DNA from: a bacterium
Lineage (GTDB): Bacteria > BMS3Abin14
DNA length: 53,590 nt
Direction of reading: 5' to 3'
Assembly: GCA_029210545.1 (NCBI GenBank)
Contig: JARGFV010000002.1
Span: forward strand, 1 to 53,590
This document shows positions 2,061 through 53,103 of this stretch, one piece after another. Each line of letters begins with the position of its first letter. Position 1 is the first letter of the stretch. The translations under genes and the position numbers were made by a program. The notes beneath the pieces were generated by a model. It did no database searches and was not told the origin of the DNA. It saw only the letters and a program-made list of their open reading frames with translations.

Positions 2061-2138
2061 CGTGACTGGTAACTCGTGACTCGTGACTGGTTCAACTGGT
2101 TCAACCTCGAATCACGAATAACAAATCGCGAATTACGG
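2061..2138. repeat. Paired inverted heptamer arms (TCGTGAC-type / ATCACGA-type)
   Basis: CGTGACTGGTAACTCGTGACTCGTGACTGG just after the lptB stop; complementary CGAATCACGAATAACAAATCGCGAATTACGG before rpoN. Confidence 0.7.
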
Positions 2139-2167
2139 ATTTTTCAAACCGGACGGGAAGTGTGTGA

Positions 2168-3616
2168 GTGGACCTTAAGACTCAACTCCTGATGAAGCAG
2201 ACGCAGCAGCTGGTGATGACGCCCCAGCTGCAGCAGGCTATCCGTCTGCTCCAGCTGTCCCGGATGGAACTGGTTGAAATGGTTCAGCAGGAGATGCTGG
2301 AAAACCCTGTCCTCGATGAATATGCCCTCCCCGACAACGAGAACGAGGTCTCCATCGATCGCCCGGACGGTCCCGAAACACCTCCTGAGAACAGTTCGGA
2401 CAAGGAAAACGAGATAGATATCTCCTCCATTCCACAGGATGTCGCGGAATGGGAGTCGTACCTGGAGTCCAATCAGAGCCTGCCTTACCATGTGCGGGAA
2501 GAGCAGGAACGGCCCCCCATCGAGGCCATGATCACGCGCCCCGCCACTCTTCACGAGCACCTCCGCTGGCAGCTTCAGATGACCCGTCTGACCGAGCCTG
2601 AGGTCACCGCCGGGGAGGCCATCATAGGCCACCTGGACGACAACGGCTATCTGGTCAGCCCTATCGACGAGATCCTCGACCCCCTGGGCCCGGAAGTGGC
2701 TGAGGCGGGCGCGCGGGTCCTGTCGGTGATCCAGGAGTTCGACCCGGCGGGTGTTGGAGCGAAGGACCTGTCTGAGTGTCTCCTGATCCAGATCAGACAG
2801 GCAGGGTTGGAGGGGAGCCTCGTCGAAAAGATCATCCGTCAGCACCTCGACAACGTGGCCCGGGGTGATGTGGACAGGATCGTGCGTGAAACCGGTGAGC
2901 CCCGGTCGGACGTGCTGCAGGCTGTGGCGTTTCTCAAGGAACTCGAACCGAAACCCGGCCGGCCTTTCGGGGGCTCGGAATCGATCTACGTAACGCCGGA
3001 CGCCTACCTGTTCAAATTGGGCGGGGAGTGGACCATTACCCTCAACGATGACGGGATGCCGAAACTCCAGATCAACAGCTACTACAGGGAACTCATGAAA
3101 TTTGGAGCCAAGTTGAAGCCGGAGGAAAGGGAGTTCCTCCTCGAAAAGATCAGGTCCGCGTCGTGGCTTATCAAGAGTATCGACCAGAGGCAGCGGACCA
3201 TCTATCGTGTTACGAAGAGTATCCTGGAAAAGCAGCTGAATTTCTTCGAAAGAGGGATCCGGTATCTCAAGCCCATGGTGCTCAGGGATGTGGCCGATGA
3301 CATCGGTGTTCACGAATCAACGGTGAGCCGTGTCACGACCCAAAAATACCTCCACTGTCCCCAGGGTTTATTCGAGCTCAAGTTCTTCTTTAACCCGGGC
3401 ATCCAGACCCTCTCCGGGGAGATGCTCGCCTCCGAGAGTGTGCGGGCCAAGATCCGGGATGTCGTGTCCGTCGAGGACAACGGAAAACCTCTCAGCGACC
3501 AGGCCATCTCGGAGATGCTCAGGCTTGAAGGGATCGATATCGCACGCAGGACAGTGGCGAAATACAGGGAAGCAATGAATATCCTCCCGTCGTCCAGGAG
3601 GAAGAAACTGACGTGA
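2168..3616 (+). CDS. rpoN: RNA polymerase sigma-54 factor
   Basis: N-terminal Gln/Leu-rich MTPQLQQAIRLLQLS region, HESTVSRVT HTH, RpoN box ARRTVAKYRE. Confidence 0.97.
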   Translation: MDLKTQLLMKQTQQLVMTPQLQQAIRLLQLSRMELVEMVQQEMLENPVLDEYALPDNENEVSIDRPDGPETPPENSSDKENEIDISSIPQDVAEWESYLESNQSLPYHVREEQERPPIEAMITRPATLHEHLRWQLQMTRLTEPEVTAGEAIIGHLDDNGYLVSPIDEILDPLGPEVAEAGARVLSVIQEFDPAGVGAKDLSECLLIQIRQAGLEGSLVEKIIRQHLDNVARGDVDRIVRETGEPRSDVLQAVAFLKELEPKPGRPFGGSESIYVTPDAYLFKLGGEWTITLNDDGMPKLQINSYYRELMKFGAKLKPEEREFLLEKIRSASWLIKSIDQRQRTIYRVTKSILEKQLNFFERGIRYLKPMVLRDVADDIGVHESTVSRVTTQKYLHCPQGLFELKFFFNPGIQTLSGEMLASESVRAKIRDVVSVEDNGKPLSDQAISEMLRLEGIDIARRTVAKYREAMNILPSSRRKKLT

Positions 3617-3709
3617 TCACGCTCATCAGCTGCCTGCCATGGGGGCAGGGTTGACTTTGATTTTTTTCTGTGTTTACGTCCATTTATTTCGGAGGGAGGT
3701 TCGATAACA

Positions 3710-4255
3710 ATGCAGATCGAGGTATCCTTCAAGCAGATGGAACAAAGCGAACCGTTGAGGGAATACATCACCGATAAGCTCGAGAAGGTCCTCAAAACCC
3801 TCTCGGAACCGATCAGCGCGCAATCAGTACTTCAGGTGGAAAAATACAGGCATATCGCGAAGGTCACCATCCACGCCAACGGTATCATCATCAAGGGCAA
3901 GGAAGAGACGAACGATATGTACAGCTCCATCGACCTCGTCCTCGACAAGCTGGACCGCCAGGTCAGAAAGTACAAGGAGAAGATCAGCCGCCACGGCGAC
4001 AGGGAGGCTGTCAGGGAGTACCGGGCGAGCCATTCCGTTATTCCCGAAGAGGTTGTTGACGCGGGAACCGCCGAGGTCATCAAACACAAGGAGATCATTC
4101 TCAAACCCATGACCGTCGATGAGGCCATCATGCAGATGGAACTCATGAACAAGAGCTTCCTGCTTTTCAACAACTCCAGGACGGGATTGTTGAGCGTGAT
4201 CTACATCCGGGACGACGGTCATTTCGGCATAATCCAGCCACAGGCAGAAGGGTAG
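3710..4255 (+). CDS. hpf: Ribosome hibernation promoting factor (long HPF/RaiA)
   Basis: DMYSSIDLVLDKLDRQVRKYKEK and C-terminal KPMTVDEAIMQM...F..F.N domain; follows rpoN. Confidence 0.92.
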   Translation: MQIEVSFKQMEQSEPLREYITDKLEKVLKTLSEPISAQSVLQVEKYRHIAKVTIHANGIIIKGKEETNDMYSSIDLVLDKLDRQVRKYKEKISRHGDREAVREYRASHSVIPEEVVDAGTAEVIKHKEIILKPMTVDEAIMQMELMNKSFLLFNNSRTGLLSVIYIRDDGHFGIIQPQAEG

Positions 4256-4268
4256 AGTGGAATACCAT

Positions 4269-4730
4269 ATGAAGATAGTCGATTTTCTGACTTTCAGCGA
4301 TGTCATATCCGACCTGCGGGCCACCACGCGGGAAGGGGTCTTGCGGGAGATGGTCGATCACCTGAAGGAAGCCGGGAAGATAACAGACAGCAACAGGCTC
4401 GTGGAGATACTCCTCGATCGGGAGATGCTCGGAAACACCGGTATCGGTTATGGAGTTGCCATCCCCCACGGCCGTCTGGAGGGCCTCAAGGATATCCTCC
4501 TCGTTTTCGGAAAATCCGTCGACGGGATCGAGTTCGATGCCCACGACGGCCAACCGGTCAACCTGTTTTTCCTCCTTGTCGCACCCGAGGATTCGGCGGG
4601 CCTGCATTTGAAAGCCCTGGCAAGGATTTCGCGCATCGTCAAGAACCCTGAATGCCGCAAGGCCCTTCTGGAAAGCGGGGACAGCGAGTCCCTCTTCCAG
4701 GTTATCCAGGCTGAGGACGAGCGGCACTGA
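4269..4730 (+). CDS. ptsN: PTS IIA-like nitrogen regulatory protein (EIIA-Ntr)
   Basis: REMLGNTGIGYGVAIPHGR with phospho-His; HLKALARISR; rpoN operon position. Confidence 0.9.
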   Translation: MKIVDFLTFSDVISDLRATTREGVLREMVDHLKEAGKITDSNRLVEILLDREMLGNTGIGYGVAIPHGRLEGLKDILLVFGKSVDGIEFDAHDGQPVNLFFLLVAPEDSAGLHLKALARISRIVKNPECRKALLESGDSESLFQVIQAEDERH

Positions 4731-4746
4731 TAGAAAAAAGGGTCGG

Positions 4747-5718
4747 ATGATCAGTATCCCAGTCCGCTGTCTATACGAACATACCATCGAAGATCTCGAA
4801 CTCGAGATCCTCGCCGGTGGAAGGGGAATGGACCGGGCTATCCGGATTCCCCGGATCCAGAAGCCGGGGCTTGCCCTTGCCGGGTTCCTTGACCAACTCC
4901 ACCGTGACAGGGTTCAGATCCTGGGGCAGACAGAGCTTTCCTACCTCGAGACTCTCGAAGGAGGGATCGCCGACCGGCGCCTTGAGGACCTGTGCAGTGC
5001 AGGGGTTTCCTGCGTCATCATCGCAAAAAAACTCAAGGCGCCCGATTCCCTGATAAGGCTTTGCGATCAGCACGGCGTCCCCCTTTTCCGCAGCCCTGAA
5101 GTCACCTCTCTCCTCATCCGCAGGGTTACCACCTATCTTGAGGACATTCTCGCGCCCGAGACCTCTGTCCACGGTTGCCTCGTGGACGTCTACGGCGTGG
5201 GGATCCTTCTCATCGGAAAGAGCGGGATCGGCAAGAGCGAATGCGCCCTGGGACTTGTAGAGCGCGGTCACAGGCTGGTGGGTGACGATGTGGTCGTCAT
5301 CAGGAGGAAGGTTCCGGGGACCCTTTTCGGCAGCGCCGCCGATCTCATCAAGTATCACATGGAGATCCGCGGGCTTGGGATCATCAACATCAAGGACCTT
5401 TTCGGCGTCAGTTCCATCCGTCAGAACAAGAAGATCGAACTGGTGGTCGAACTGGTGGAATGGCTCCAGGATCTGAAAGTCGAGCGTCTCGGCCTGGACG
5501 AACACACCTACTCCATCCTTGATGTGAATATCCCGTACCTGATGATCCCTGTGCGGCCGGCACGGGATCTGACCCTGATCATCGAGGTCGCTGCCCGAAA
5601 CCTTCTGCTTAAACGCATGGGGTATAATGCCGCCAGGGAGTTCGACAACACTCTTTACCAGAGGATGTCTGACCGGTCCCGAACCCTTGACAAGCCTGAC
5701 CTGGAATCGGTCGAGTGA
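4747..5718 (+). CDS. hprK: HPr(Ser) kinase/phosphorylase
   Basis: Walker A GKSGIGKSE, LVGDDVV, MEIRGLGIINI, PVRPARDL. Confidence 0.95.
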   Translation: MISIPVRCLYEHTIEDLELEILAGGRGMDRAIRIPRIQKPGLALAGFLDQLHRDRVQILGQTELSYLETLEGGIADRRLEDLCSAGVSCVIIAKKLKAPDSLIRLCDQHGVPLFRSPEVTSLLIRRVTTYLEDILAPETSVHGCLVDVYGVGILLIGKSGIGKSECALGLVERGHRLVGDDVVVIRRKVPGTLFGSAADLIKYHMEIRGLGIINIKDLFGVSSIRQNKKIELVVELVEWLQDLKVERLGLDEHTYSILDVNIPYLMIPVRPARDLTLIIEVAARNLLLKRMGYNAAREFDNTLYQRMSDRSRTLDKPDLESVE

Positions 5719-6584: not shown

Positions 6585-6589
6585 GTGTT

Positions 6590-7000
6590 ATGGAGGAAGG
6601 TTTTGGCGTTGTCATCGTGACCCATGGAGACCTGGGAGACTCTCTTCTTGCCACCTGTCGCATGATCACCGGCGAAAGGCCGGGGATCTCCTCGGTGGCG
6701 GTACGTGCAGGGGATGAGGTCGAGGAGATCCAGACCCGGATCGCGGCTGCCATCGGGGAGGTGAGAGGGAACAAGGGCGTCATCCTTCTCGTGGACATGT
6801 TCGGAGGCACACCGTCCAACATCAGCCTTTCGTTCCTCGGTGAGAAGGATGTGGAGGTGGTGACGGGTGTCAACCTTCCCATGCTGACCAAGTTAAGGGG
6901 GCTTCCTCCCGAACTTACCCTGAGGGAGACAGCCGCCAGCCTCAGGGATTACGGGAGGGAACACATCAAGGTTGCCACGGAATATCTTGCCGGGGACTGA
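6590..7000 (+). CDS. PTS mannose-family IIA component
   Basis: VIVTHG phospho-His, DMFGGTPSN, GVNLPML; ATG 6590 has GGAGGG upstream (ORF track start 6581). Confidence 0.88.
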   Translation: MEEGFGVVIVTHGDLGDSLLATCRMITGERPGISSVAVRAGDEVEEIQTRIAAAIGEVRGNKGVILLVDMFGGTPSNISLSFLGEKDVEVVTGVNLPMLTKLRGLPPELTLRETAASLRDYGREHIKVATEYLAGD

Positions 7001-7002
7001 TC

Positions 7003-8911: not shown

Positions 8912-9168
8912 ATGTCATCATATCCAACGAACTCGGCCTACACGCCCGGGCCGCGGCCAGGTTCGTTGAGGCGGCAGCCCGTTTCACATGCGAAGTGTGG
9001 CTCTCCAAGGACGGCCACAAGGTCAACGGCAAAAGTATCATGGGGATCCTGACCCTGGCAGCCGCCCGGGGCGAGAAGGTGACGATCGAGGTCGAGGGAG
9101 TAAACGAGACCATGGCCCTTGCTGAGCTCAAGGTCCTCATTGAGGGAGGGTTCGGGGAGAAAAGGTAA
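8899..9168 (+). CDS. ptsH: Phosphocarrier protein HPr
   Basis: NELGLHARAAA (His15) and NGKSIMGILTL (Ser46); ATG at 8899. Confidence 0.93.
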   Translation: MVRVDVIISNELGLHARAAARFVEAAARFTCEVWLSKDGHKVNGKSIMGILTLAAARGEKVTIEVEGVNETMALAELKVLIEGGFGEKR

Positions 9169-9171
9169 ACG

Positions 9172-9295
9172 GTTCACAGTTCACAGTTCACAGTTCACAG
9201 TTCACAGTTTATAATTCAAAGTTTATAGTTTACAGTTGACAGTGAACCGTGAGCCAAAAACTGTAAACCGATTACCGTAAACCGTAAACTTCAAC
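9172..9295. repeat. Paired inverted heptamer arms (GTTCACA x5 perfect plus degenerate in-register units / TGTAAAC-CGTAAAC)
   Basis: Five exact GTTCACA units at 9172-9206, then GTTTATA, ATTCAAA, GTTTATA, GTTTACA, GTTGACA; complementary arm ACTGTAAAC...CGTAAACCGTAAAC at ~9260-9295. Confidence 0.85.
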
Positions 9296-9377: not shown

Positions 9378-11789
<2,412 letters not shown>

Positions 11790-12073: not shown

Positions 12074-12198
<125 letters not shown>

Positions 12199-12203: not shown

Positions 12204-13295
12204 TTAATGCAGTCTAGGATGCCTCAACAGCGCCAGGGCCGCGAGTCCGAGGACCAGGAACAGTACCTGGGCGGACCATGCGGCCACGGGGGGGGAGATC
12301 ACCCCGGCGTGGCCGAGGGAGAGGGACAGGGAAAACAGGGTCCAGTAAACCAGGGCCAGCATGATGCTCAAGCCCGTTCCCAGTGGGACCCCGCCCCGGA
12401 CAGGTACCGCGAAACTTACCGGAAGGGCGATCACCGTAAAGATGAGGGAGATGACCGCGGCCGAAAGCTTCTGATAGAGGCTGACCTGGTAGGTGATGTG
12501 GGGCAGTCCGGCGGCCTTGAGGTTCTCGATGTAGTCAGCCAGTTGAGCCAGGCCCATCTCCTCAGGTCTCCGGCGGACCTGGTAAAACTCTTCGGGTGTG
12601 ATGTGCACCGGGATCCTCTGGTCGATGAGGGTCCGGGTGTCGGTGACATGACCGTTGATGAACCTTCTTGAAACCATTTTTTCCGCGATCCACGATCCGT
12701 TCTCCCAACGAGCCAGTTCCGAATCCATGCGAAGGTTCAACTGTCGCAGTCCATTCCCCTCGAACTGGAGGACCGTGGGCTCCACCAGGACCGTTCCCCT
12801 CTCCTGTACGGCGCTGATGTGGATGACGCGGTTCCCTTCCAGGAGCCAGATGCGCCGATCCCCCACGACCGAGGCGCCGGGGCCCTTCTTTTTGCTCACG
12901 ATATCCCGGCTGACGCGGTTAGCGCCCGGGGCCAGCGACTCTGTCAGATAGAAGGAGCCGATGCTCACACCGATAGCGGCCGCAAGGATGGGAGCGCTCA
13001 TCCGTATCCCACCGATCCCGGTGGCGAACATGGCTGTCATCTCACCCGTCCTTTTCAGTCCCGTCAGGGTGAGAAGCGTGGCCAGGAGGCATGCGATGGG
13101 GGACATCTCGTAAAGGATATTCGGGATCATCAGTGCGAAATGAAGAGCGATGGCAGCCGGGGCGATCCCACGCCGGATGTAATCCCAGACGGTGAAGGAC
13201 GCGTCAGATGCGAGGTACGCCGCCATGAGAACGACCAGGGCCGGGAAAAAAGTCAGGAGCCACCGCCTGATGATGTACCTGTTCAGGCGGCTCAT
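12204..13295 (-). CDS. lptG: LPS export ABC transporter permease LptG
   Basis: YjgP/YjgQ-type: MSRLNRYIIRR start, three N-terminal TMs, GEMTAMFATG, periplasmic beta domain, AAWSAQVLF; ATG at 13295 overlaps the lptF stop. Confidence 0.82.
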   Translation of the reverse strand: MSRLNRYIIRRWLLTFFPALVVLMAAYLASDASFTVWDYIRRGIAPAAIALHFALMIPNILYEMSPIACLLATLLTLTGLKRTGEMTAMFATGIGGIRMSAPILAAAIGVSIGSFYLTESLAPGANRVSRDIVSKKKGPGASVVGDRRIWLLEGNRVIHISAVQERGTVLVEPTVLQFEGNGLRQLNLRMDSELARWENGSWIAEKMVSRRFINGHVTDTRTLIDQRIPVHITPEEFYQVRRRPEEMGLAQLADYIENLKAAGLPHITYQVSLYQKLSAAVISLIFTVIALPVSFAVPVRGGVPLGTGLSIMLALVYWTLFSLSLSLGHAGVISPPVAAWSAQVLFLVLGLAALALLRHPRLH

Positions 13296-17657: not shown

Positions 17658-17772
17658 GTGATCAGTGAACAGTGATTGGTGGTTAGTAGTAATGTATCTT
17701 GCCCATTATGGATTATTTATTTCGAATCATCGATAAATAATACCAATCACAAATCACTAATCACGAATCACC
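17658..17772. repeat. Paired inverted heptamer arms (GTGATCA/GTGAACA/GTGATTG ... ATCACAA/ATCACTA/ATCACGA)
   Basis: The right arm ends just before the valS ribosome-binding region. Confidence 0.7.
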
Positions 17773-20439: not shown

Positions 20440-21343
20440 GTTTCCACTGAATGTTCACCGCCTCATCGACCTTGCCGTGGAGGAGGACCTGGGGACGGGG
20501 GATGTCACAGGGAAGGCGATCCTGGACGAGAACGCTCAGGGGGAAGCGGTCATCCTGGCCAGGCAGGAGCTGGTGCTGTGCGGCCTTGACGTGGCTCGGG
20601 AGGTATACAGGCGGATCGGTGCGGGCGTGGTCCTCACTTCCTCCATATCCGAGGGGCAGACGGTCGGGCAAGGTGCTGTATTGGCCGAACTGACCGGCCC
20701 CGTCACGGTCCTCCTGACAGGGGAGAGGATCGCCCTGAACTTCCTCCAGCGCCTTTGTGGTATCGCCACCCTCGCGGGCCGCTACGCCGCCGCCGCCGGG
20801 GGAAGGACGACGATCCTGGACAGCCGGAAAACGGTGCCCGGCTGGCGCTGGCTGGACAAGATGGCAGTGAGGGTGGGTGGGTGTACCAACCACCGCATGG
20901 GTCTTTTCGACGGTATCCTCATCAAGGACAACCACATCGCGGCCAGCGGCGGCATCCCGGAGGCGCTTGCCCGGGCGAGGGAAAGGGCCCCCGCGGGGAT
21001 GGAGATCGAGATCGAGGTCGAGGACCTGGACGGTGTCAGGGAAGCCATGGAAAACGGAGCTGACATCATCATGCTGGATAATTTCGATCCTCCAGACGTG
21101 GTCCGGGCGGTCCGGATCAACGCTGGCAAGGCGCGCCTGGAACTTTCAGGCGGGATAGACCTCACCAACCTCGGGGAGTACCTGGATGCTGCCGGGCTGG
21201 GTTCCGGCAGAGGCGTCGATTTTATCTCGATAGGTGCCCTGACACACTCGGCGCCGGCGGCCGATATCGCCATGGAGATAAGGTCCGGCAATCCGGCGGC
21301 CGAAAGACACGGAGACACGGGGACACGGGGACGCGGGGAATAA
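20432..21343 (+). CDS. nadC: Nicotinate-nucleotide pyrophosphorylase (quinolinate phosphoribosyltransferase)
   Basis: EDLGTGDVT, ERIALNFLQR, DSRKTVPG, NHRMGLFDGILIKDNHI, MLDNF, SGGI; ATG 20432 overlaps the valS end. Confidence 0.95.
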   Translation: MIKFPLNVHRLIDLAVEEDLGTGDVTGKAILDENAQGEAVILARQELVLCGLDVAREVYRRIGAGVVLTSSISEGQTVGQGAVLAELTGPVTVLLTGERIALNFLQRLCGIATLAGRYAAAAGGRTTILDSRKTVPGWRWLDKMAVRVGGCTNHRMGLFDGILIKDNHIAASGGIPEALARARERAPAGMEIEIEVEDLDGVREAMENGADIIMLDNFDPPDVVRAVRINAGKARLELSGGIDLTNLGEYLDAAGLGSGRGVDFISIGALTHSAPAADIAMEIRSGNPAAERHGDTGTRGRGE

Positions 21344-21400: not shown

Positions 21401-21572
21401 TCCCTGGGCGTGTCACTGAGAGTCATAAAGTGAACAAGGCAGTTATAGCCGACCGGCGTCAGGTCTGGAATTTAACCACAGGGTACACCCTTCGACAGGC
21501 TCAGGACAGGCGGGGTGACACAGGGTAAGACTACAACCAGGGAAGGATTTGAAAAGAAACATGCGTAACATT

Positions 21573-21727
21573 GATGGACTCGCAAAAAGTCCATCAACGC
21601 ACCCCGCGCGGGGTGCCCAAATCAATGACCCGCCCCCTAAGTCATTGATTTGTAAGGAAAGGGAAAACGACGCTTTTCCCTTTCCGTGGAGCGAAAAGTC
21701 CCGGACTGGACTTTTTGCGACTCTTTC
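21573..21727 (+). mobile_element. Family A five-hairpin MITE-like element, copy A2 (155 bp)
   Basis: 20-bp imperfect TIRs (17/20 matched), five internal hairpins, AACATT on both flanks (21567-21572 and 21728-21733). Confidence 0.8.
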
Positions 21728-21859
21728 AACATTGATCTACCCTGTGAAACCCTGTGGTGTGACCTGAAAAAAGGTCACGCTGTGGTTGAATGGTTTATCA
21801 GAATTCGACTGTTCGACCGGCGTCAGGACATGTAAGGTCGCCTCGGGAGCCAAAAGGCC

Positions 21860-22585
21860 ATGATCCATCGCTTCGAGAGCCTGGGATCAACCAATGATCA
21901 ACTCGTACGGATGGCGGAGGAAGGGGCACCGGAGTACACGGCGGTTCTGGCCGAAAGACAGACCCGGGGAAAGGGACGGGCCGACAGGGGCTGGTGGTCT
22001 CCCCCGGGGAACCTGTACCTTTCGGTCCTCCTCCGGCCCGGGATCAACGCCAGGCGGCTTCCGAGGGTATCCATCCTGGCGTCCCTGGCCCTTTTCCGGG
22101 CGATCGACGACAGGACCGGAACCGTTTCCCTTAAATGGCCCAATGACCTGCTCCTTGACGGCAGGAAATTGGCGGGCATCCTGCCGGCTGGCAGGATCGA
22201 GGGAGACAAGGTGGCCTGGGTCGTGACCGGGTTCGGTGTGAACGTGGTCAAACCGGAACAGGGTGTGCCCGGGGAACTGGAAGACCGGGTCGCTTTTCTC
22301 GATGAGATCGTCGAGACATCCCTTGACGACCTGGTTCACAGGATCATCGGCGAGTTCAAGGGCCTGGCCGGGTCTTTCGAGGGCCCGGCGTGGCAGAGGG
22401 CCCGGGAAGAATGGTCGCGCAGCGCCGTTTTCGGTCCTCACTATACACTGAGGGACGGTAAGAGGCGGATCGTTGGAACGCCCGTGGGCCTTGCCCATGA
22501 CGGCGGGCTGGTCATGGAAACGGAGCAGGGAACGGTTACAGTTTATGCGGGGGAACTGGAAGAGAGTGCAGAGTGTAGAGTGTAG
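21860..22585 (+). CDS. birA: Biotin--acetyl-CoA-carboxylase ligase (no N-terminal HTH)
   Basis: STNDQL, QTRGKGR, GNLYLS, KWPND, KLAGIL, GFGVN. Confidence 0.9.
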   Translation: MIHRFESLGSTNDQLVRMAEEGAPEYTAVLAERQTRGKGRADRGWWSPPGNLYLSVLLRPGINARRLPRVSILASLALFRAIDDRTGTVSLKWPNDLLLDGRKLAGILPAGRIEGDKVAWVVTGFGVNVVKPEQGVPGELEDRVAFLDEIVETSLDDLVHRIIGEFKGLAGSFEGPAWQRAREEWSRSAVFGPHYTLRDGKRRIVGTPVGLAHDGGLVMETEQGTVTVYAGELEESAECRV

Positions 22586-22741
22586 AGTGCAGAGCAGAGT
22601 GTAGAGCAGAGTGTAGAGTGTAGAGCAGAGTGCAGAGTGTAGAGTGTAGAGTTCAGAGTGCAGAGTTTATATGCTGAGGTTGCTGAGTTATTACCAGAGA
22701 ATTACTTCCTCTGCACCCTGCACCCTGCACTTTACACTCTA
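22561..22741. repeat. Paired inverted heptamer arms (AGAGTGY run / CTCTGCA-CCCTGCA-CTTTACA-CTCTAAA)
   Basis: About 100 bp of AGAGTGT/AGAGTGC/AGAGC units starting inside the last birA codons; complementary arm at ~22709-22741 before the coaX RBS. Confidence 0.85.
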
Positions 22742-23532: not shown

Positions 23533-23769
23533 AAGGTAAAAGTGAAAAGGGGCAAGGGGAAAGGGGAAAGTGAAAAGGGAGGAGGGAGAGACCGTATGTG
23601 CGTAAAGCGTGTGGGCGTCAGATCTTTCGCACGTACGCACGTACGCTTCACTCACACACGGTTTTTCCCGGGATTTTCCCTTTCCACCCTGAAATCTTGA
23701 TTGATTCTATTTTTGAGATTTTGGGGATAAAAAAACCTTGTTGGCAACCGGCTTCGCAGGATGTGGGTG

Positions 23770-23928
23770 AGCGGTGGTCTTTATGGGCTTAATCAGGTCA
23801 TTCGCAAGGTCCTGACCCAGTCACCGCGAGATGATGGTCACGAGTCATACACAGTGGATATTGACGCGACAGCTATCGAGGCGGGCAAGAAGTTGGCGCG
23901 CATGACGTACAAGGGATTTCGCGGCTAC
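23770..23928 (+). pseudogene. IS1380-type DDE transposase fragment
   Basis: YTVDIDATAIEAGKKLARMTYKGFRGY resembles the IS1380 first-Asp region (D.D.T....K..A..TYKG..GY); similarity stops at a perfect palindrome. Confidence 0.65.
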
Positions 23929-23960
23929 ACACGGAATCCGGACGCGTCCGGATTCCGTGT
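23929..23960. other. Perfect 32-bp palindrome, no spacer
   Basis: ACACGGAATCCGGACG|CGTCCGGATTCCGTGT. Confidence 0.9.
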
Positions 23961-24213
23961 TCCTGAGCCTGCCTGCCGCAGGCAGGGGGGAACCATACCC
24001 GAAATCCGGCCCAAACCAATCTCGGATTTCGGGTTTCCACTTTCACCTTGTCCCTTTATTTTTCCGATGGTAACCTTGCTCTGTTTATTTGGTTGATCTT
24101 TCATATCTCATCTCACCCGGCGGGGATTCATACTGACACCGTGGCCGCCTTGGAAGGTGTCATGGGGTGACCCTTACCGAGGCTGTACCAGTCGCTACTT
24201 AAGGAGCCATTGT

Positions 24214-28498: not shown

Positions 28499-29848
28499 AT
28501 GCCTGTGTTCAATTACGCCAAGAAGGAAGTGAACGTAAAGGTGGTCTACTATGGGCCCGGGCTGTCCGGCAAGACCACCAACCTTCAGCAGATCCACGAA
28601 GGGATCAAGCCGGAGTTCAAGGGCAAGCTCGTTTCCCTGGCGACCCAGACCGACCGGACCCTCTTCTTCGATTTCATGCCCCTGGAGTTGGGCTCCCTGG
28701 GCGGCTACAAGGTTCGGCTGCACATTTACACCGTGCCCGGGCAGGTTCATTACAACGCGACACGCAAACTGGTCCTCAAGGGCGTTGACGGGGTCGTTTT
28801 CATCGCCGACTCCCAGCGAGCCATGAGCGATGCCAACGTGGAAAGTTTCCTCAACCTGGAAAAAAACCTCCAGTCCTACGGGAAAGCCCTTGTGGACCTC
28901 CCCCACCTCATTCAGGCCAACAAGAGGGACCTGGATGATATTGCCTCTATGGACGAGATCGGGGCTCTTCTCAACCGCTATGGTGCTCCCCTGACCGAAG
29001 CGGTGGCTTCCGAGGGAAAGGGGGCCCTCGAGACCCTCACGGAGATCGTCCGCATGGTGATGAGAGGGCTGAGGGATCAGTTCAGACGTCAAATTAATGA
29101 AAGGGAAGATGAAGCCTCAGTCACAGACGCAGTCTCAGCTCCAGAACCCCCACCTGCGCCTGCTCCGGTGGCCGAACCGATGGTAGTCTCAGACACAGTC
29201 TCAGACCCGGTGCCGGAACCACCCCGCCCTGATCCCAGTCGAGGGGAACCGGAAACTGCTGTCACTGATAGGGCGCAGCCCATTCGAGTGAATATCCCTG
29301 TTGAGGGGATCGGGACGCTGGAGCTTTCCATTATGGTCACCGCGAAGATAGTGGAAGAGGACAGGAGTCTCGAAGTGCAGGTTGAAAGCGCTGCCATCGA
29401 GGGCGCGGAGCCTGAAATAGACACAGACACGGACACAGACACAGTGCTGGAACCGGTATTCACTTCCGGCGAGGCTGTAGTGGACAAACCAGAGCCGGAA
29501 CCTGAGACCGAGACCGTGACTGAGACTGAGACTCCCCCCCCGCTGGGGGAAGAGAGTGCTGAACCCCTCGGGGCTCCCCTGGATGGCCAGGAAATGGATC
29601 CTGAGGTCGAACCACTGGATGTTCCGGAAGCGCCCCTGCCGGAAGTGTTCCTCGACGACGAGAAGATCCTCACCGACGATGATGCCGCGCCTGCAGATAC
29701 AATAGCCACGGACTCGACGGAACACCCGCTTGACCGGTACGACCCCACGGCCAAACCCATCGCTCTCTTTGCAGAGAGCGGGGACGAACCGGCCCCGCAG
29801 GAGCCGGCTCCGAAGAAGAAGGGGTTTTTCGGAAGGTTCAAAAAATAG
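28499..29848 (+). CDS. MglA-family small GTPase with ~250-aa acidic C-terminal extension
   Basis: KVVYYGPGLSGKTTNL, TDRTLFFDF, YTVPGQVHY, LKGVDGVVFIADSQ, NKRDL; ends in KKKGFFGRFKK. Confidence 0.88.
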   Translation: MPVFNYAKKEVNVKVVYYGPGLSGKTTNLQQIHEGIKPEFKGKLVSLATQTDRTLFFDFMPLELGSLGGYKVRLHIYTVPGQVHYNATRKLVLKGVDGVVFIADSQRAMSDANVESFLNLEKNLQSYGKALVDLPHLIQANKRDLDDIASMDEIGALLNRYGAPLTEAVASEGKGALETLTEIVRMVMRGLRDQFRRQINEREDEASVTDAVSAPEPPPAPAPVAEPMVVSDTVSDPVPEPPRPDPSRGEPETAVTDRAQPIRVNIPVEGIGTLELSIMVTAKIVEEDRSLEVQVESAAIEGAEPEIDTDTDTDTVLEPVFTSGEAVVDKPEPEPETETVTETETPPPLGEESAEPLGAPLDGQEMDPEVEPLDVPEAPLPEVFLDDEKILTDDDAAPADTIATDSTEHPLDRYDPTAKPIALFAESGDEPAPQEPAPKKKGFFGRFKK

Positions 29849-29863: not shown

Positions 29864-29930
29864 CCTGAGCTTGTCGAAGGGTGGAAAGGGGAAAGGGGAA
29901 AGTTAAAAGGGGAAAGTGGAAGGTGGAAAA
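29864..29930. repeat. REP-like CCTGAGCTTGTCGAAGG plus purine heptamer arm (GGGGAAA/GTGGAAA)
   Basis: CCTGAGCTTGTCGAAGG is the near reverse complement of CCTTCGACAGGCTCAGG at ~21489-21505. Confidence 0.6.
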
Positions 29931-29939
29931 GAAATCATG

Positions 29940-29964
29940 GGCGGCCTGCGGGCCGCCTTTTTTT
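29940..29964 (+). terminator. Rho-independent terminator after the MglA-like gene
   Basis: GGCGGCC-TGCG-GGCCGCC followed by seven T. Confidence 0.8.
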
Positions 29965-30144
29965 ATTATTTGAGCAAAGCGCAAAGGGAGAAGCAAAGAA
30001 TTGATGTTGGATTCCGGCTCAGGGCTATGCCGTGTCCGGAATGACGGATAAAAACACTCCGCGTCCCCGTGTCCCCGCGTCGAAAGGTTTTCCTCCTCCC
30101 TCCTCCCTGCTTTCCCTTGGCCCCCATCTTGCTCTTCCCCGTGA

Positions 30145-32604: not shown

Positions 32605-33018
32605 GGGCGGCGCGCCCAAATCAATGAATAGCCGCGCCTGGGAATGGCGCCCGGATCGATGATCGACCATCTACCGCGCCTGGGAATGGCGCCCGGATCG
32701 ATGATCGACCATCTACCGCGCCTGGGAATGGCGCCCGGATCAGTGACTGAAATACAGGTCACTGATCCGTGAGGGAACCGAAAACCACGCTTTTCGGTTT
32801 CCGTTGAGCCAAAGTCCTACTCGGACTTTGGCGATTTACAGTAGTCACCGTGAGGGAACCGAAAACCACGCTTTTCGGTTTCCGTTGAGCCAAAGTCCTA
32901 CCCGGACTTTGGCGATTTACAGTAGTCACCGTGAGGAAAGGGAAAACGACGCTTTTCCCTTCCCCCAGGACATTAATGAGCCAGGAAAAGTTCCGCCTGG
33001 ACTTTTTGCGACTCTATC
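32605..33018 (+). repeat. Family A copy A3, expanded by internal tandem duplications (42 bp x2.6; 81 bp x2)
   Basis: 42-bp unit starts at 32632, 32674 and 32716; 81-bp unit starts at 32767 and 32848; canonical A right end at 32929-33018; left TIR absent. Confidence 0.85.
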
Positions 33019-33040
33019 AAAATTGTGTTGTGTTTTCCCT

Positions 33041-33069
33041 CCAGACACCAGACACTAGACTCCAGACGC
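33041..33069. repeat. Heptamer tandem (CCAGACA CCAGACA CTAGACT CCAGACG)
   Basis: Read directly from the sequence. Confidence 0.7.
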
Positions 33070-37674: not shown

Positions 37675-37730
37675 TTAACAGTGAAACGTGTATGGCTTAT
37701 TCCCAATCACGAATCACGAGTCACGGCTAA
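37671..37730. repeat. Heptamer arms (GTTAGTTAACAGTGAAACGTG / AATCACG AATCACG AGTCACG)
   Basis: Starts at the stop codon and ends before the aspS RBS. Confidence 0.6.
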
Positions 37731-39754: not shown

Positions 39755-39782
39755 ATAGGTATACTGTATACAGTATACCTAT
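39755..39782. promoter_or_regulatory. Perfect 28-bp palindrome (operator-like) downstream of TTGACA
   Basis: ATAGGTATACTGTA|TACAGTATACCTAT; TTGACA at 39731-39736. Confidence 0.6.
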
Positions 39783-39907: not shown

Positions 39908-40132
39908 CAATTTTACCTGTTATGGGCTGATTTGTTGATTTTAGCCGGTCAATTGTTTATGAATGACTTTTGCCGGGAGGGTTCCAGGAAGATCGATGGA
40001 CTCATCGGCAGGAAGGTCGTCACTTTCGGTTTCCCTTGCTTTATGAGGGCCGAGGTTGTCAAAAGGGATCAAGTGCTCCGAGTCTGGTCAGTCCGCTGTT
40101 GACCACGTGGAGTCAGGGAGTACACAGTATAT

Positions 40133-41187
<1,055 letters not shown>

Positions 41188-47743: not shown

Positions 47744-47745
47744 AA

Positions 47746-48891: not shown

Positions 48892-48940
48892 TAACCCCAC
48901 AAAGACTCCTGGCAATGGTCAAGTGACGCGAGGTTCAACG

Positions 48941-49789
48941 ATGACTCATCCTGTCGCAATTATCCCCTACACGAACATGGCGCCTCTACAGGTTTTCGGT
49001 CCTCCGCAGGGGTGCCGGTTCGTGCCGATGGTTCCCCGGGAGAGCATAACCGCCCTTCTGGAGAAACGTGTGATCGCCGCGGCTGTACCGGTGGGTGGGC
49101 TGCCGGCTCTCGACTCCGCCGTCGACCTGCTGGGGCCTTTCGGTATCGCCGCACGGGAACGGTCCATGAGCGTCCTGCTGTTTTCGAAGCGGCCGTTTGC
49201 CGATATCCCACCCGACGCCCGATTCCGATTGACCTCTGAATCCGCCTCCAGCGTCCGGCTCCTCTACCTTCTCCACGGATATCGAAACGGGTTTAAAAAA
49301 AAACCCACTTCGGCCGGTAACGGACGTAGTGCGGACGGAGAGCTTCTTATCGGCGATGCCGCCCTGCTCATGAGGAAATCGCATCGGGAAAACAGGTCAC
49401 ACGAATACCCTTTTGTGACGGACCTGGCGGAGGAATGGTTTGCCATGCACAGCCTGCCTTTCGTCTTCGCCAGATGGGTGATACGCAAAGATGCTCCTGG
49501 CACCGCCCGCAGGGCACTCGAAAACTGGCTTGATGAGTTCAGAGTCAATGAGTTCGACCTGATCCATCGTGCGGCGCCGCCGGCTGCCAGAAGCCTCGGC
49601 TTGCCCCTGCAGGAGGTGCTGGACTATTTCCGAACTGTCCGCCGGGTCCTCGACCAGGATGATCTTGCCGGGCAGGAACGTTTTTTAACCGATCTTGAGC
49701 TATTGAAAGAGTCGCAAAAAGCCCAGGCGGGACTTTTTGCTCAACGGAAAGCGAAAAGTGTCATTTTCGCTTTCCTCACAGATCATTGA
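48941..49789 (+). CDS. mqnA: Chorismate dehydratase
   Basis: IPYTNMAPL, SMSVLLFS, SASS, LLIGDAAL, DLAEEW, LPFVFARW; the last 27 aa come from repeat copy A5. Confidence 0.88.
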   Translation: MTHPVAIIPYTNMAPLQVFGPPQGCRFVPMVPRESITALLEKRVIAAAVPVGGLPALDSAVDLLGPFGIAARERSMSVLLFSKRPFADIPPDARFRLTSESASSVRLLYLLHGYRNGFKKKPTSAGNGRSADGELLIGDAALLMRKSHRENRSHEYPFVTDLAEEWFAMHSLPFVFARWVIRKDAPGTARRALENWLDEFRVNEFDLIHRAAPPAARSLGLPLQEVLDYFRTVRRVLDQDDLAGQERFLTDLELLKESQKAQAGLFAQRKAKSVIFAFLTDH

Positions 49790-49857
49790 CTTCTATTGCC
49801 GGTCATTGATCTGGGCGCCCCACCTGGGGCGTGTTGATGACTTTTTGCGAGGTCACC
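49705..49857 (-). mobile_element. Family A element, diverged copy A5 (153 bp, reverse orientation)
   Basis: Reverse complement keeps the TIRs and the four internal hairpins with stem-preserving substitutions. Confidence 0.78.
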
Positions 49858-49908
49858 AACTATTATATGTGGGAGTAACAGCCCCTCGGAAGCCGCATCC
49901 CTCCCTGG

Positions 49909-49937
49909 GTGTCTGTCGGAGAACCTGACACAGACTC
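49909..49937 (+). repeat. Family B mini-element, copy B3 (29 bp)
   Basis: GTGTCTGTCGGAGAACCTGACACAGACTC, flanked by CTGG on both sides. Confidence 0.65.
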
Positions 49938-49960
49938 CTGGTGAAAAGGGAACAGTCATT

Positions 49961-51070
49961 GTGGAGGACGATCCATTGAAAAAGTCGCGCACGGGGGAAA
50001 GAATAGCTGCCCGACGCATGGGCGAACGGTTCGAGCGCGGTGATGCGCTGGAGCTGCTCAGGGAAATGCCCATGGGGCGCCTGATGGCTATGGCTCACGG
50101 TGCGCGTCTCGATCGCTACCCGGAGCCCGCTGTGACCTTCGTAATAGATACCAATCCGAACTACACGAACATCTGCGTCACCCGGTGCCTTTTCTGCGCC
50201 TTCTGCCGCCCGGGAAACGACGCGGATGCCTACACCCTTTCCCCGAAGCAGCTGGGCGAAAGGGTTAAGGCCGCTCACGACATCGGGGCGACAACCGTGC
50301 TGCTGCAGGGGGGGCACAACCCGGCTATCGGGCTGGGGGAATGGACAGCATACATCCGGGAGATCCGGAAAGCCTGTCCGGACATCCACATTCATCCTTT
50401 CAGCCCTGCCGAATACGTCTTCATGGCAGCTAAGGAGAAGATCAGCTACGAAGAGGCACTGCGGTCCGTATACCTCGAAGGAGTGGACACCATCCCTGGC
50501 GGAGGCGCCGAAATCCTGACCGAACGGGTACGACAGGCAATCGCGCCGGACAAGGCAACGACGAACGAATGGCTGGAGCTTAGTGAGACCGCACACCGGA
50601 TAGGGTTTAGAACTACCGCGACCATGATGTTCGGTCACATTGAAACAGATATGGACATTGTAGACCATCTTCTGTCGCTTCGGGCGGTGCAGGATCGTAC
50701 TGGAGGGTTTACCAGCTTTATTCCCTGGTCGTTCAAACCGGGCTGTTCACACCTCAGCCGGAAGGTTCCGTCCCCGGTACACCCGGCAAAGTATGTGCGA
50801 ATAATTGCTCTGGCACGCCTGGTGCTCGACAACTTCCCTCACATTCAATCTTCCTGGTTCAGCGAGAGCGTTCAGGCAGGGCAGCTGGGGCTGCTTGCCG
50901 GGGCAGACGATTTCGGAGGGGTGCTGATAGAAGAAAATGTGCTCAAGACAACCGGATACCGGAATACTTCCACGGTCGAAGAGGTTAAAAACATCATCCG
51001 AAGAGCGGGGTTCACACCGGCACAGAGAAACGGCTATTATCAGACCATTTGCGTCCAGAAGCCTGTGTGA
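49961..51070 (+). CDS. mqnC: Cyclic dehypoxanthinyl futalosine synthase (radical SAM)
   Basis: NPNYTNICVTRCLFC, LLQGGHNP, IPGGGAEIL, ATMMFGH, FIPWSF, HIQSSW, EENV. Start could be ATG 50018. Confidence 0.9.
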   Translation: MEDDPLKKSRTGERIAARRMGERFERGDALELLREMPMGRLMAMAHGARLDRYPEPAVTFVIDTNPNYTNICVTRCLFCAFCRPGNDADAYTLSPKQLGERVKAAHDIGATTVLLQGGHNPAIGLGEWTAYIREIRKACPDIHIHPFSPAEYVFMAAKEKISYEEALRSVYLEGVDTIPGGGAEILTERVRQAIAPDKATTNEWLELSETAHRIGFRTTATMMFGHIETDMDIVDHLLSLRAVQDRTGGFTSFIPWSFKPGCSHLSRKVPSPVHPAKYVRIIALARLVLDNFPHIQSSWFSESVQAGQLGLLAGADDFGGVLIEENVLKTTGYRNTSTVEEVKNIIRRAGFTPAQRNGYYQTICVQKPV

Positions 51071-51087
51071 GGTTCTCCGACCCGATA
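51059..51087 (-). repeat. Family B mini-element, copy B4 (overlaps the mqnC stop)
   Basis: AGCCTGTGTGAGGTTCTCCGAC is a 20/22 inverted match to 49915-49936. Confidence 0.6.
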
Positions 51088-51310
51088 CCCGCGATTGTAT
51101 TTATCGACCTCCGGTCGGCGGGCAAGAGATGCCGCTTTTTCGATCCGGGTCCAGAAAATGTGTCCGGGCAACGTCAGGAACCGGCAACCCGCACTTCTTG
51201 TATTCTTCTGCCGGCGACGCCGGAACCCCGGCCGGAGGGGCCCAATCGGCGGATTTCGGGGTGACACTGCCCTCTGGCAAGCGTCCCGATTATCTGGTAT
51301 TTAAGGAAAC

Positions 51311-52927
51311 ATGGAAACCGACGTTCTTATCATTGGATCGGGGGTGGCCGGTTTCATGACCGCCCTCAAGGTGGCAAGATTCGCAGACGTGACTCTTGTC
51401 ACCAAGCGATCGGCCGATGACACCTCCACCTCCAAGGCCCAGGGCGGTATCGCCACCGTCATGGACGACGCGGACCGGTTCGAATACCACATCCGGGACA
51501 CCCTCACCGCGGGAGCCGACCTCTGCCACGAGGACGTGGTGGAAACGATCATCAAGAACGGCCCGAGGGCCCTGAGGGAACTCATCGACCTGGGCGCTCA
51601 TTTCGACCTGTCTGCCAAAGGTACACTTGACCTTGGACGGGAGGGCGGACACAGCCATCGGCGCATCGTCCACGCGAAGGACATGACCGGGCGCGAGATC
51701 CAGCGGGTCATCCATGCCGCAGCCGACCGCAACGAACGGATCCGGGTCCTCGAAAACCACATGGCTCTGAACCTCGTGACCCTGGGCACCCTGGCCAACC
51801 GCCTGCCCGACGACCCGGCCACCGACCGGTGCCTGGGATGCTACATCCACAACGCGGTCACCGGTGAGATCTTTCCTCTCCTTGCAAGAACTGTTGTCCT
51901 GGCAACCGGCGGCGCCGGGAAAGCATACCTTTATACAAGCAACCCCGACGTCGTCTCCGGAGCGGGGATTTCCCTGGCCTATCGCATCGGGGCCGACATC
52001 GCCAACATGGAGTTCGTCCAGTTCCATCCCACCTGCCTTTATCACCCGGCGGCCAAATCGTTCCTCATCAGCGAAGCGGTCCGGGGCGAGGGGGCCGTGC
52101 TCAGGACCCTCGACGGAAACGCCTTCATGGGAGCCTATCACGAGATGAAGGACCTCGCACCAAGGGACATCGTGGCGAGGGCCATCGACAGCGAACTGAA
52201 AAAACGGGGCGACGACCACGCCCTGCTGGACATCACCCACAAGCCGGCCCGTGAGATCATCGACCGGTTTCCCAACATCTACCAGCAATGCCTCGAATAC
52301 GGATTCGACATGACGAAAGAACCCCTCCCCGTGGTCCCGGCGGCCCATTACCTTTGCGGAGGGGTCCGGACCGACCTGGACGGGAAAACCGCGGTCCCAG
52401 GGCTTTACGCCTGCGGGGAAACGGCGTGCACGGGACTTCACGGCGCCAACCGCCTGGCCAGCAACTCCCTTCTCGAAGCCCTCGTCATGGCCGACAGGAT
52501 CGCCTGCTCCATGGAGGCCGAATGGGATTCCCTCGCTCACCCCACGGCCTTGGACATTCCTGCCTGGGACCCGGGTGATGCCGTGGACTCCGACGAGAAC
52601 GTTGTCATCTCCCACAACTGGGACGAGATCAGGCGCACCATGTGGAACTACGTGGGGATCGTTCGTACCGACCGGCGCCTTGAAAGGGCCCTTCACCGCA
52701 TCGAGCTGTTGAAGCGGGAGGTGGAGGAGTACTACTGGAACTTCCGCATCACCAGGGATCTCATCGAACTGAGGAACCTTGTCTACGTCGCGCTCCTCAC
52801 GGTGCGCTGCGCCATGGCCCGCAAGGAGAGCCGCGGCCTCCACTACACCCTGGACTACCCGGAAAGGGACGAGGCGTACCGGAAGGACACGGTGATCAAC
52901 CGAAGGCAGTATATTAAAAGGCCGTGA
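51311..52927 (+). CDS. nadB: L-aspartate oxidase
   Basis: IIGSGVAG, AQGGIA, REGGHS, LATGGAG, MEFVQFHPT, LISEAVRGEG, PAAHYLCGG, GLHGANRLASNSLLE. Confidence 0.96.
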   Translation: METDVLIIGSGVAGFMTALKVARFADVTLVTKRSADDTSTSKAQGGIATVMDDADRFEYHIRDTLTAGADLCHEDVVETIIKNGPRALRELIDLGAHFDLSAKGTLDLGREGGHSHRRIVHAKDMTGREIQRVIHAAADRNERIRVLENHMALNLVTLGTLANRLPDDPATDRCLGCYIHNAVTGEIFPLLARTVVLATGGAGKAYLYTSNPDVVSGAGISLAYRIGADIANMEFVQFHPTCLYHPAAKSFLISEAVRGEGAVLRTLDGNAFMGAYHEMKDLAPRDIVARAIDSELKKRGDDHALLDITHKPAREIIDRFPNIYQQCLEYGFDMTKEPLPVVPAAHYLCGGVRTDLDGKTAVPGLYACGETACTGLHGANRLASNSLLEALVMADRIACSMEAEWDSLAHPTALDIPAWDPGDAVDSDENVVISHNWDEIRRTMWNYVGIVRTDRRLERALHRIELLKREVEEYYWNFRITRDLIELRNLVYVALLTVRCAMARKESRGLHYTLDYPERDEAYRKDTVINRRQYIKRP

Positions 52928-53103
52928 CTCGTGACTCGTGATTAGTACTTAGGGAACCCCCCGGCTTTGCCGGGGGTACATGGCTGACTCGCAACCCGTA
53001 ATCCGATAAGGTCTTTGTGAATTGCGATTAAATGGTTTTTGCAAACAGAACCAGGAATTTCCGCGATTTTTTCTAATTACGAATCACAAATTACGAATCA
53101 CGG
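52924..53103. repeat. Paired heptamer arms (GTGACTC... / ATTACGA ATCACAA ATTACGA ATCACGG) enclosing a GC-rich hairpin
   Basis: The left arm overlaps the nadB stop; CCCCCGGC-TTT-GCCGGGGG at 52958-52976. Confidence 0.7.

Follow-up and report, generated by a model that had tools for sequence, protein, structure and literature searches.

Tandem 7- and 8-nucleotide arrays between housekeeping genes as probable arms of an insertion class related to 23S rRNA intervening sequences

Results

Short tandem arrays and four-helix-bundle genes

The window analyzed here is a 53,590-nucleotide contig (JARGFV010000002.1, or C164) of the 2.72-Mb, 241-contig assembly GCA_029210545.1 (genome G000; G+C 58.5%) from a bacterium of the lineage BMS3Abin14, and many of its intergenic spacers carry short tandem arrays of 7- or 8-nucleotide units, in several cases as two arms in inverted orientation. 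These arrays are probably the terminal arms of a class of insertion that exists both with and without a gene for a four-helix-bundle protein. The gene belongs to TIGR02436/PF05635, the ‘23S rRNA intervening-sequence protein’ family of four-helix bundles, related to Avd. The copies in the window are gene-less derivatives or relatives with short loops, not full cassettes. An earlier, sequence-only reading of the window had proposed an element like an intervening sequence (IVS), and this proposal is supported by nine such genes in the genome, at least seven of them beside arrays, by a series of orthologous junctions, and by repeat words shared with cassettes of other genomes.

Orthologous junctions

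The earlier reading had pointed to orthologous junctions in relatives as places where a small gene between the arms or an empty site might be seen, and the junctions compared here range from empty through gene-less arms to arms with a gene. At birA-coaX, array-free genera have the genes side by side or overlapping, and elsewhere they are separated by a spacer of 130-250 nt bounded by inverted arms, the words of which change with lineage: AGAGTGY/CTCTACA in this genome and in G010, and GTCCAAC/GTTGGAC, ATTCAAA/TTTGAAT or CCAAAGN/CTTTGG in others. At lptB-rpoN, the genes overlap by 4 nt in g6; elsewhere the spacer is either unarmed, at 38-98 nt, or armed, at 110-200 nt, with other words in g5 and g8 and with words that differ even among species of one genus. 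Upstream of dusB, g4, g6, g7, and g8 have an empty junction, g2 (G001) has a gene-less purine/pyrimidine hairpin, and this genome (g1) and three g5 genomes have a four-helix-bundle cassette in antisense orientation with the same 8-mer arms.

The comparison was also made in reverse, with the cassettes of relatives taken first and the matching junction then read in this genome. One such junction (C4:7461-7650) has a gene-less pair with GACACGGG arms, and in G007 the same junction has a gene between arms of the same word. Another (C11:8129-8395) keeps one arm together with a faint C-terminal gene remnant (E = 3.7) at the expected site, a third (C182:12574-12588) is an empty site of 14 nt, and three more hold arrays with different words. 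Taken across genomes, the junctions show insertions into sites where the genes originally overlapped or stood a few bases apart, with the element making up most of the present spacer. Mainly because it makes up most of a spacer that was originally very short, its arms lie against stop codons and ribosome-binding sites (RBSs).

A separate observation concerns birA-coaX in a metagenome contig (PVMK01181063.1; locus L102), where complementarity runs past ATTCAAA/TTTGAAT into caccaccttttt / aaaaaggtggtg. These correspond to the coaX RBS and start-codon region, and the stem would sequester the RBS there.

Four-helix-bundle cassettes

A whole-genome profile search found nine TIGR02436 genes in this genome, none of them in the window, and many others in relatives. 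The sequence-only reading had stated that no such gene lies in the window, which is correct, and had pointed to similar arms around small four-helix-bundle genes in other anaerobes, an association borne out in this genome, among its relatives, and across other phyla. Tandem-repeat arrays adjoin at least seven of the nine genes. Inverted arms of 6-8-mers are present on both sides at C46, C208:41520-42065, C158, C190:10965-11529, C198, and C78, the word being different at each armed copy, and the gene on C48 has an array on its one readable side. In the C208 cassette, one arm reaches to within 2 nt of the stop codon upstream and the second lies 10 nt away from the start codon downstream, and the cassette geometry is that of the gene-less pairs in the window. 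The same armed layout was found in relatives, in other genera, and in unrelated phyla. The protein matches pentameric XCC0516 (PDB 2gsc) with E = 1.4e-16.

A six-frame hidden Markov model (HMM) search of the genome found no PF05635/TIGR02436 open reading frame (ORF) in the loops of the window and, beyond the nine genes, added only two faint matches (E > 2), one of them at a junction where relatives have a cassette. With at most two faint remnants, most gene-less pairs are therefore not recent gene deletions, and fresh pseudogenes were rejected as their source. No RVT_1 match was found anywhere in the genome; with no reverse transcriptase present, the four-helix-bundle genes are therefore not the Avd genes of diversity-generating retroelements (DGRs), and a telomerase-like or DGR origin was rejected. 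RNase III is encoded (rnc, C10:6222-6866).

Two cassette neighborhoods were recorded in passing. A pair of paralogous genes of ~440 aa in G000 (C198:24-1391 and C41:2141-3433, the second truncated), with conserved ends reading ...GTIPEDA..DDRRKW, are each followed immediately by a four-helix-bundle cassette, reflecting either a duplication that included the cassette or repeated insertion at the same site. The flanks of a cassette in the relative G004 (locus L252, 6522-6764) map to the ends of two G000 contigs, C102 and C105, and armed cassettes may be among the causes of contig breaks in this metagenome-assembled genome.

Shared words and protein clades

Arm period follows the protein lineage, and so in part does the arm word. 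Those arrays of this genome that are farther than 450 nt from every resident cassette were checked for words found in the cassette arms of other genomes, the expectation being taken from letter-shuffled units. Exact matches to arm words of relatives’ cassettes numbered 102 for 7-mers, compared to 23.6 expected, and 56 for 8-mers, compared to 2.6 expected; with up to one mismatch, 173 of 344 8-mers matched (38 expected). A maximum-likelihood tree of 36 four-helix-bundle proteins places all nine 8-mer-armed cassettes, from five independent loci, in one clade with support of 100/96, a grouping equaled in 0 of 500 label shuffles, and the sister group of this clade carries ACGTGCGT-type arms. Of the resident proteins, those of C158 and C190 are of the 8-mer clade, and those of C46 and C48 of a 7-mer clade.

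A few gene-less hairpins have paralogues that include the loop. The hairpin at 23576-23663 of the window has a 93% identical copy, loop included, at C61:1601-1687 beside a four-helix-bundle gene, and the C198 cassette is armed with the same word; the other cases are C219:6989-7059 (7 matches), C187/C8, and C228/C133. Single scans of genome and metagenome contigs returned no near-identical relative in which strain-level variants could be read.

Genome-wide census, placement, and polarity

Arrays across the 2.72-Mb genome were counted against a third-order Markov shuffle, with gene calls from a simple codon-usage caller, the start codons of which are approximate. The genome holds 897 arrays of period 7, 363 of period 8, and 196 of period 14, compared to 76, 91, and 18 after shuffling, so that periods 7 and 8 together total ~1,260 against ~167, and 447 distinct canonical units occur among these 1,260 arrays. 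Called genes make up 78% of the genome and contain ~21% of array bases, leaving ~80% intergenic; periods 6, 9, and 12, unlike 7 and 8, are mostly coding. An array is present in ~40% of spacers longer than 20 nt (379 of 937 co-directional, 78 of 169 convergent, and 67 of 171 divergent). Samples of 16-80 kb from other genomes of the family gave densities of 15-120 arrays per 100 kb, above the shuffled background of ~6 throughout.

The earlier reading had expected arms to be oriented and paired throughout the genome. An inverted partner in the same spacer (score ≥20) was found for 193 of 792 arrays, about five times the 40 found in other-spacer controls, with direct partners for 66, and a bias toward a G-rich first arm is evident. 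Median array size is 3.7 units, with a steep drop above 4.5 units, giving arms of ~29-30 nt. Pairs have a median loop of 42 nt (10th-90th percentile 19-467 nt) and span a median of 62% of their spacer. Arrays most often begin 0-25 nt past a stop codon and finish 10-30 nt ahead of a start codon, far above the expectation from spacer lengths.

A consistent polarity had also been claimed. The G-rich 5′ arm is real, with G exceeding C in the first arm of 62 pairs and falling below it in 22, but the bias is strand-symmetric and independent of gene direction, since left arrays are G-rich and right arrays C-rich in co-directional, convergent, and divergent spacers alike. A polarity tied to gene direction was rejected on this evidence; an inverted repeat is identical on both strands, and the first-arm G bias is therefore uninformative on gene direction. 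No left-G/right-C pattern was seen in array-free spacers, and a G-rich first arm is likewise favored among gene-bearing cassettes of other genomes. Polarity is a property of the element or palindrome.

Arrays in the window

Window arrays of periods 7 and 8 were called with Tandem Repeats Finder (TRF), and arm pairing was assessed by aligning every spacer locally with its reverse complement. TRF gave 21 period-7/8 rows in the 53.6 kb, where ~3 are expected at the shuffled-genome rate. All 12 spacers named in the sequence-only reading carry such arrays, with TRF starts at 2061, 9172/9258, 12076/12134/12162, 17745, 21306, 22563/22711, 23546/23628, 29883/30059/30092, 33041, 37705, 40168, and 52923/53075. 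The unit words read are CGTGACT, GTTCACA, TTGGATY, TTTGAGA, CTGCCTA, AATCACR, GACACGGG, AGAGTGY, GGGGAAA, CGCACGTA, and CCAGACA, and the neighbors are ordinary housekeeping genes (lptB-rpoN, HPr-metK, ahcY, lptG, valS, nadC, birA-coaX-fusA-like, comEC, aspS, mdh, and nadB). The sites are listed in Table 1.

The observation of paired, inverted arms is confirmed. Clear array-built inverted pairs occupy seven of the 12 named spacers, but the arrays at 12076-12198, 21306-21339, and 33041-33067 lack an in-spacer partner, and those at 29883/30092 and 37680/37705 are weakly paired. The nested A-B-B′-A′ order claimed for the coaX-fusA spacer is real and spans 23539-23690, with 23546-23569 complementing both 23664-23690 and 24034-24057 and enclosing the hairpin at 23584-23669. 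So is the abutment on the minus-strand lptG stop, where the array ends at 12198 and the ORF at 12204. Most window spacers fold more stably than dinucleotide shuffles (z of -3 to -7), with terminators and one miniature inverted-repeat transposable element (MITE) adding to the stability in some.

Some sites need comment beyond the table. The arrays at 22563 and 21306 extend into the 3′ ends of birA and nadC, and the spacer downstream of nadC also contains a MITE (21567-21734). At birA-coaX, the pair 22634-22665 / 22709-22740 scores 39 and the fold z is -3.6. The words of the ahcY-lptG arrays recur at many other loci of the genome. In the MglA-like-comEC spacer, no self-complement alignment of score ≥20 was found except a terminator-like hairpin at 29940-29957. 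The junction upstream of aspS has a clear GTGAATC/GTTCACT pair in G004 and none in other genera.

Table 1 Tandem-array elements of the window, with positions in the 53,590-nt stretch and scores from self-complement alignment
Site	Span	Part	Part positions	Units and structure
lptB-rpoN spacer	2061..2137	arm 1	2061-2105	CGTGACT x4 + ACTGGTTCA x2
lptB-rpoN spacer		arm 2	2100-2137	AATCACG-like; imperfect hairpin over 2051-2147, score 24
HPr-metK spacer	9172..9289	arm 1		GTTCACA x10; begins 4 nt past HPr stop
HPr-metK spacer		arm 2		GTGAACC.../AAACCGT x4.6; hairpin 9164-9276, score 43; spacer fold z = -3.1
ahcY-lptG convergent spacer	12076..12198	arrays		TTGGATT x6.9, TTTGAGA x3.3, CTGCCTA x5.3; CTGCCTA array abuts lptG stop
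response regulator-valS	17658..17771	arm 1	17658-17698	GTGATYA-like, degenerate; loop 33 nt
response regulator-valS		arm 2	17732-17771	AATCACA x3.9; ends 16 nt before valS ATG; pair score 29
nadC 3′ end	21306..21339	array		GACACGGG x4.2, 8-mer array within last nadC codons; no in-spacer partner
birA-coaX	22563..22740	arm 1	22563-22666	AGAGTGY x15.7; provides birA stop codon; loop 43 nt
birA-coaX		arm 2	22709-22740	CTGCACC/CTTTACACTCT; ends ~9 nt ahead of coaX start
coaX-fusA nested element		A	23539-23579	GGGGAAA arrays
coaX-fusA nested element		B-B′	23584-23669	ACGTGCGT/CGCACGTA hairpin
coaX-fusA nested element		A′	23664-23690	TTTCCC-rich
coaX-fusA, second A′ arm	24034..24057	A′		pyrimidine-rich TTTCCACTTTCACCTTGTCCCTTT; complements 23546-23569 across 464 nt, score 33
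MglA-like-comEC spacer	29883..30118	left	29883-29929	GGAAAGG x6.7; weak purine/pyrimidine pairing
MglA-like-comEC spacer		right	30059-30081; 30092-30118	CCGCGTCC x2.9; CCTCCTC
Neighbor of expanded MITE	33041..33067	array		CCAGACA x3.9, unpaired
aspS upstream, 71-nt spacer	37705..37725	array		AATCACG x3, directly before aspS RBS; left partner AACAGTGAAACGTG weak
aspS-mdh spacer	40119..40195	3′ arm	40168-40187	GTGAACC x2.9; hairpin score 28
nadB downstream	52921..53104	arm 1	52921-52952	CGTGACT x2.7; overlaps nadB stop; pair score 34
nadB downstream		loop and arm 2	53073-53104 (arm 2)	loop 120 nt with small GC hairpin; AATTACGAATCACA x1.9

Discussion

Proposed element and the points against it

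An element of this class would consist of about four 7- or 8-nt units, a loop, and then the reverse-complement array. Whichever strand is transcribed, pairing of the arms would give a stem of ~30 bp with the insert looped out. By analogy with the homologous stems of rRNA IVSs, this stem is probably an RNase III substrate, and its cutting would make the insert less harmful to the host operon. The cognate four-helix-bundle pentamer probably binds the repeat words, each array offering it a row of sites, which would explain why protein and word co-vary. Gene-less copies may come from elements that lost the loop and, in rare cases, from copying.

Several observations weigh against reading the arrays as arms of such an insertion. 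There are only nine genes for ~1,300 arrays, gene remnants are almost absent, and no cassette in the assembly goes with the most abundant 8-mer word family (~70 arrays). A same-spacer partner is detectable for only about a quarter of arrays, and arm lengths within a pair are uncorrelated (rho = -0.02), on which ground concerted growth of both arms was rejected. More than 90% of gene-less pairs have unique loops, with a non-self match spanning the loop for 8 of 99 pair elements, and neither target-site duplication nor recent movement was seen among armed elements. Mismatches in the stems, read on the sense strand, are G:U in 94 cases and A:C in 123; with no G:U excess there is no direct sign of selection on RNA, a test that is not decisive because cassettes occur in both orientations relative to host genes. 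Array density and gene copy number are weakly correlated over small samples of 11 family genomes (rho 0.55, p = 0.08), and few other arrays occur in unrelated genomes rich in four-helix-bundle genes.

Alternative explanations

The same arrays could be a mutational by-product, in which a lineage-specific slippage of 7-8-nt units and intramolecular template switching (quasi-palindrome correction) grow paired arrays in tolerant DNA and the genes merely land or survive there. Such a process sits well with 447 canonical units, unique loops, stems without a G:U excess, equal array frequency in the three types of spacer, and a density above background in every family genome. We nevertheless consider it unlikely, as array size is capped at about four units instead of following the open-ended distribution of slippage, and arm lengths are uncorrelated where copying of one arm into the other predicts the opposite. 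Moreover, period and word co-vary with the protein clade, words are common to the cassette arms of other genomes at 4 to 21 times the controls, and the same architecture surrounds the gene family in unrelated phyla poor in other arrays (e.g., G019 and G025). Selection by the host would be a different matter, with stems coupling neighboring cistrons by placing the stop beside the RBS, or processing or stabilizing operon mRNAs. The placement of arms against stop codons and just ahead of RBSs, the folding of most spacers below their shuffles (z -3 to -7), and the complementarity that reaches the coaX RBS and start region in L102 all speak for such signals. In the earlier reading, likewise, the stem joined a stop codon to the next RBS, and the arms do cluster at gene ends, but convergent (78/169) and divergent (67/171) spacers are armed as often as co-directional ones (379/937). 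This equal frequency, together with the lack of G:U excess in sense-strand stems, makes a dedicated stop-to-RBS or translational-coupling role unlikely. As polarity is also strand-symmetric, array-free sister genera run the same housekeeping junctions with overlapping genes, and words turn over between close lineages, host regulation in general seems to us quite improbable.

Very little probability, in our judgment, attaches to binding-site arrays for a host nucleoid protein or global regulator (IHF, HU), as proposed for Geobacter metallireducens, although the TCTCCGTS[Y] consensus reported there (PMC2700814) and the CTCCGTGT family of this genome are one and the same 8-mer. A vocabulary of 447 words is beyond one or a few host proteins, the words differ at the same junction between close relatives, and the link to four-helix-bundle genes points to partners encoded by the element. 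An origin as the ends of MITE-like non-autonomous transposons, with the transposase encoded elsewhere, is comparably remote. Inverted termini, intergenic position, and the few gene-less hairpins with loop-including paralogues would fit it, but the arrays share no terminal sequence across 447 different words, no target-site duplication was seen, and more than 90% of loops are unique, for which reason a MITE-like burst was rejected. The true MITE of this genome is different, with hundreds of copies at 85-98% identity.

Relation to known systems

Arms of an insertion class with and without a four-helix-bundle gene have their closest experimentally studied relatives in the ORF-bearing 23S rRNA IVSs, those of Leptospira included, which are inserted in 23S helix 25 or 45. 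The likeness lies in stem-forming inverted repeats of the 20-30 bp class built partly of tandem heptamers, as found in seven window pairs. The differences are that the elements here lie between protein-coding genes and not in rRNA helices, that the window copies have no ORF, and that there are hundreds per genome with many words. In Coxiella burnetii, a member of this gene family lies within the 23S IVS, enclosed by a 28-bp stem that contains tandem heptamers. RNase III cuts this IVS, its heptamer copy number varies among strains, and the S23p ORF is dispensable and decays (PMC4990558). A search for 23S rRNA gave no match in the present assembly. The 23S gene of G004 (locus L266, G004:C126, 954-4743) is ~860 nt longer than the Rfam model, has no heptamer arms, and contains a 174-aa ORF with a LAGLIDADG-type motif at 3202-3726, resembling a group I intron. 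An IVS in the family’s own 23S was rejected as a candidate on these observations.

The closest published description of the gene-less pairs is that of Geobacter metallireducens, where 24, 21, and 8 pairs of inverted sites with 3-5 tandem 7-9-mers form classes 1-3 of ‘global regulator binding sites’, IHF/HU-type binding being the hypothesis of that paper, and where heptanucleotide elements are described as well (Aklujkar et al. 2009, PMC2700814). As there, the sites here are paired on opposite strands at variable distance and are mostly intergenic, and the class 2 consensus corresponds to the CTCCGTGT family. The Geobacter sites number tens of pairs with few words, compared to ~1,300 arrays and hundreds of words here, and no link to four-helix-bundle genes was drawn there.

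The short tandemly repeated repetitive (STRR) sequences of heterocystous cyanobacteria have one of a few fixed heptamer consensus words. Avd, the accessory protein of DGRs, is a four-helix-bundle pentamer that binds nucleic acid with a partner enzyme. It shares the fold family of the proteins described here, but this genome has no reverse transcriptase and no template or variable repeats, and its four-helix-bundle genes are solitary within hairpin arms. The TAACTGA repeats of Beggiatoaceae are abundant intergenic tandem heptamers near gene starts and ends (PMC4679880). The arrays here resemble STRR and TAACTGA repeats only in being intergenic heptamers near gene ends; those repeats have one or few words, mostly as direct repeats, whereas many words in inverted pairs are found here, and the present lineage is an uncultured delta-proteobacteria-like family, not cyanobacterial. 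Literature searches found no published link of this gene family to heptamer arms outside rRNA.

Significance

What is new here is the gene-less majority, the shared words, an arm period that follows the protein clade, junctions that grade from empty to filled, and a polarity that is symmetric between strands. These connect three puzzles that have stood apart, namely the excess of heptamers in bacteria, the function of the PF05635 family, and the origin of rRNA IVSs. This genome is an extreme case, with arrays in ~40% of spacers and only nine genes. By its example, one class of element may account for much of the intergenic DNA between essential genes in some lineages, which bears on genome annotation, operon prediction, and metagenome assembly.

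A bolder idea, possible but rather doubtful, is that the IVS proteins are putative sequence-specific readers of 7/8-nt arrays, each clade with its own period and word, and that they form a genome-wide system with the hundreds of gene-less pairs. If true, armed junctions, whether as DNA or as RNA, would be acted on in trans by a few resident proteins, which could shield the arms from RNase III, guide the enzyme to them, or copy them. The element would then write much of the intergenic architecture of housekeeping operons, and the same logic would explain rRNA IVSs as well as the heptamer excess in Geobacter, cyanobacteria, and other bacteria.

Other features of the window

The MITE is ~160 bp long with several hairpins and is found in the window at 21567-21734 and 32674-33024, with hundreds of BLAST matches in the genome at 85-98% identity. 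The copy at 32674-33024 is an expanded form with tandem modules of 42 bp and 81 bp; further copies lie inside the C78 four-helix-bundle cassette and beside the G004 cassette in locus L257.

Between the two A′ arms of the coaX-fusA spacer lies a dispersed 333-nt repeat (23679-24010), 94% identical to C9:3372-3703 and with partial matches on at least six other contigs. Two perfect palindromes (23929-23960 and 23968-23986) lie within it, and a 111-aa ORF (23761-24096) overlaps it. A promoter-like motif (ctttgaccttgacgc..ttttccac.ggatgatactt) at 24046-24090 occurs family-wide upstream of the EF-G-like gene, including the regions downstream of coaX in loci L006, L009, L011, L013, and L014; in the window, ~500 nt of armed inserts lie between the coaX stop codon and this motif.

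In the aspS-mdh spacer, a perfect 28-nt palindrome, ataggtatactgtatacagtatacctat, at 39755-39782 is conserved at that place in all genera of the family, and for this reason it is probably a transcription-factor operator. The GTATACA x2.9 ‘array’ at 39759 is this palindrome and was rejected as a heptamer arm. The coding tail of the MglA-like gene (28499-29848) carries in-frame hexamers, AGACAC x4.3 (29419-29444) and CTGAGA x5.3 (29502-29533), which are distinct from the intergenic 7/8-mers.

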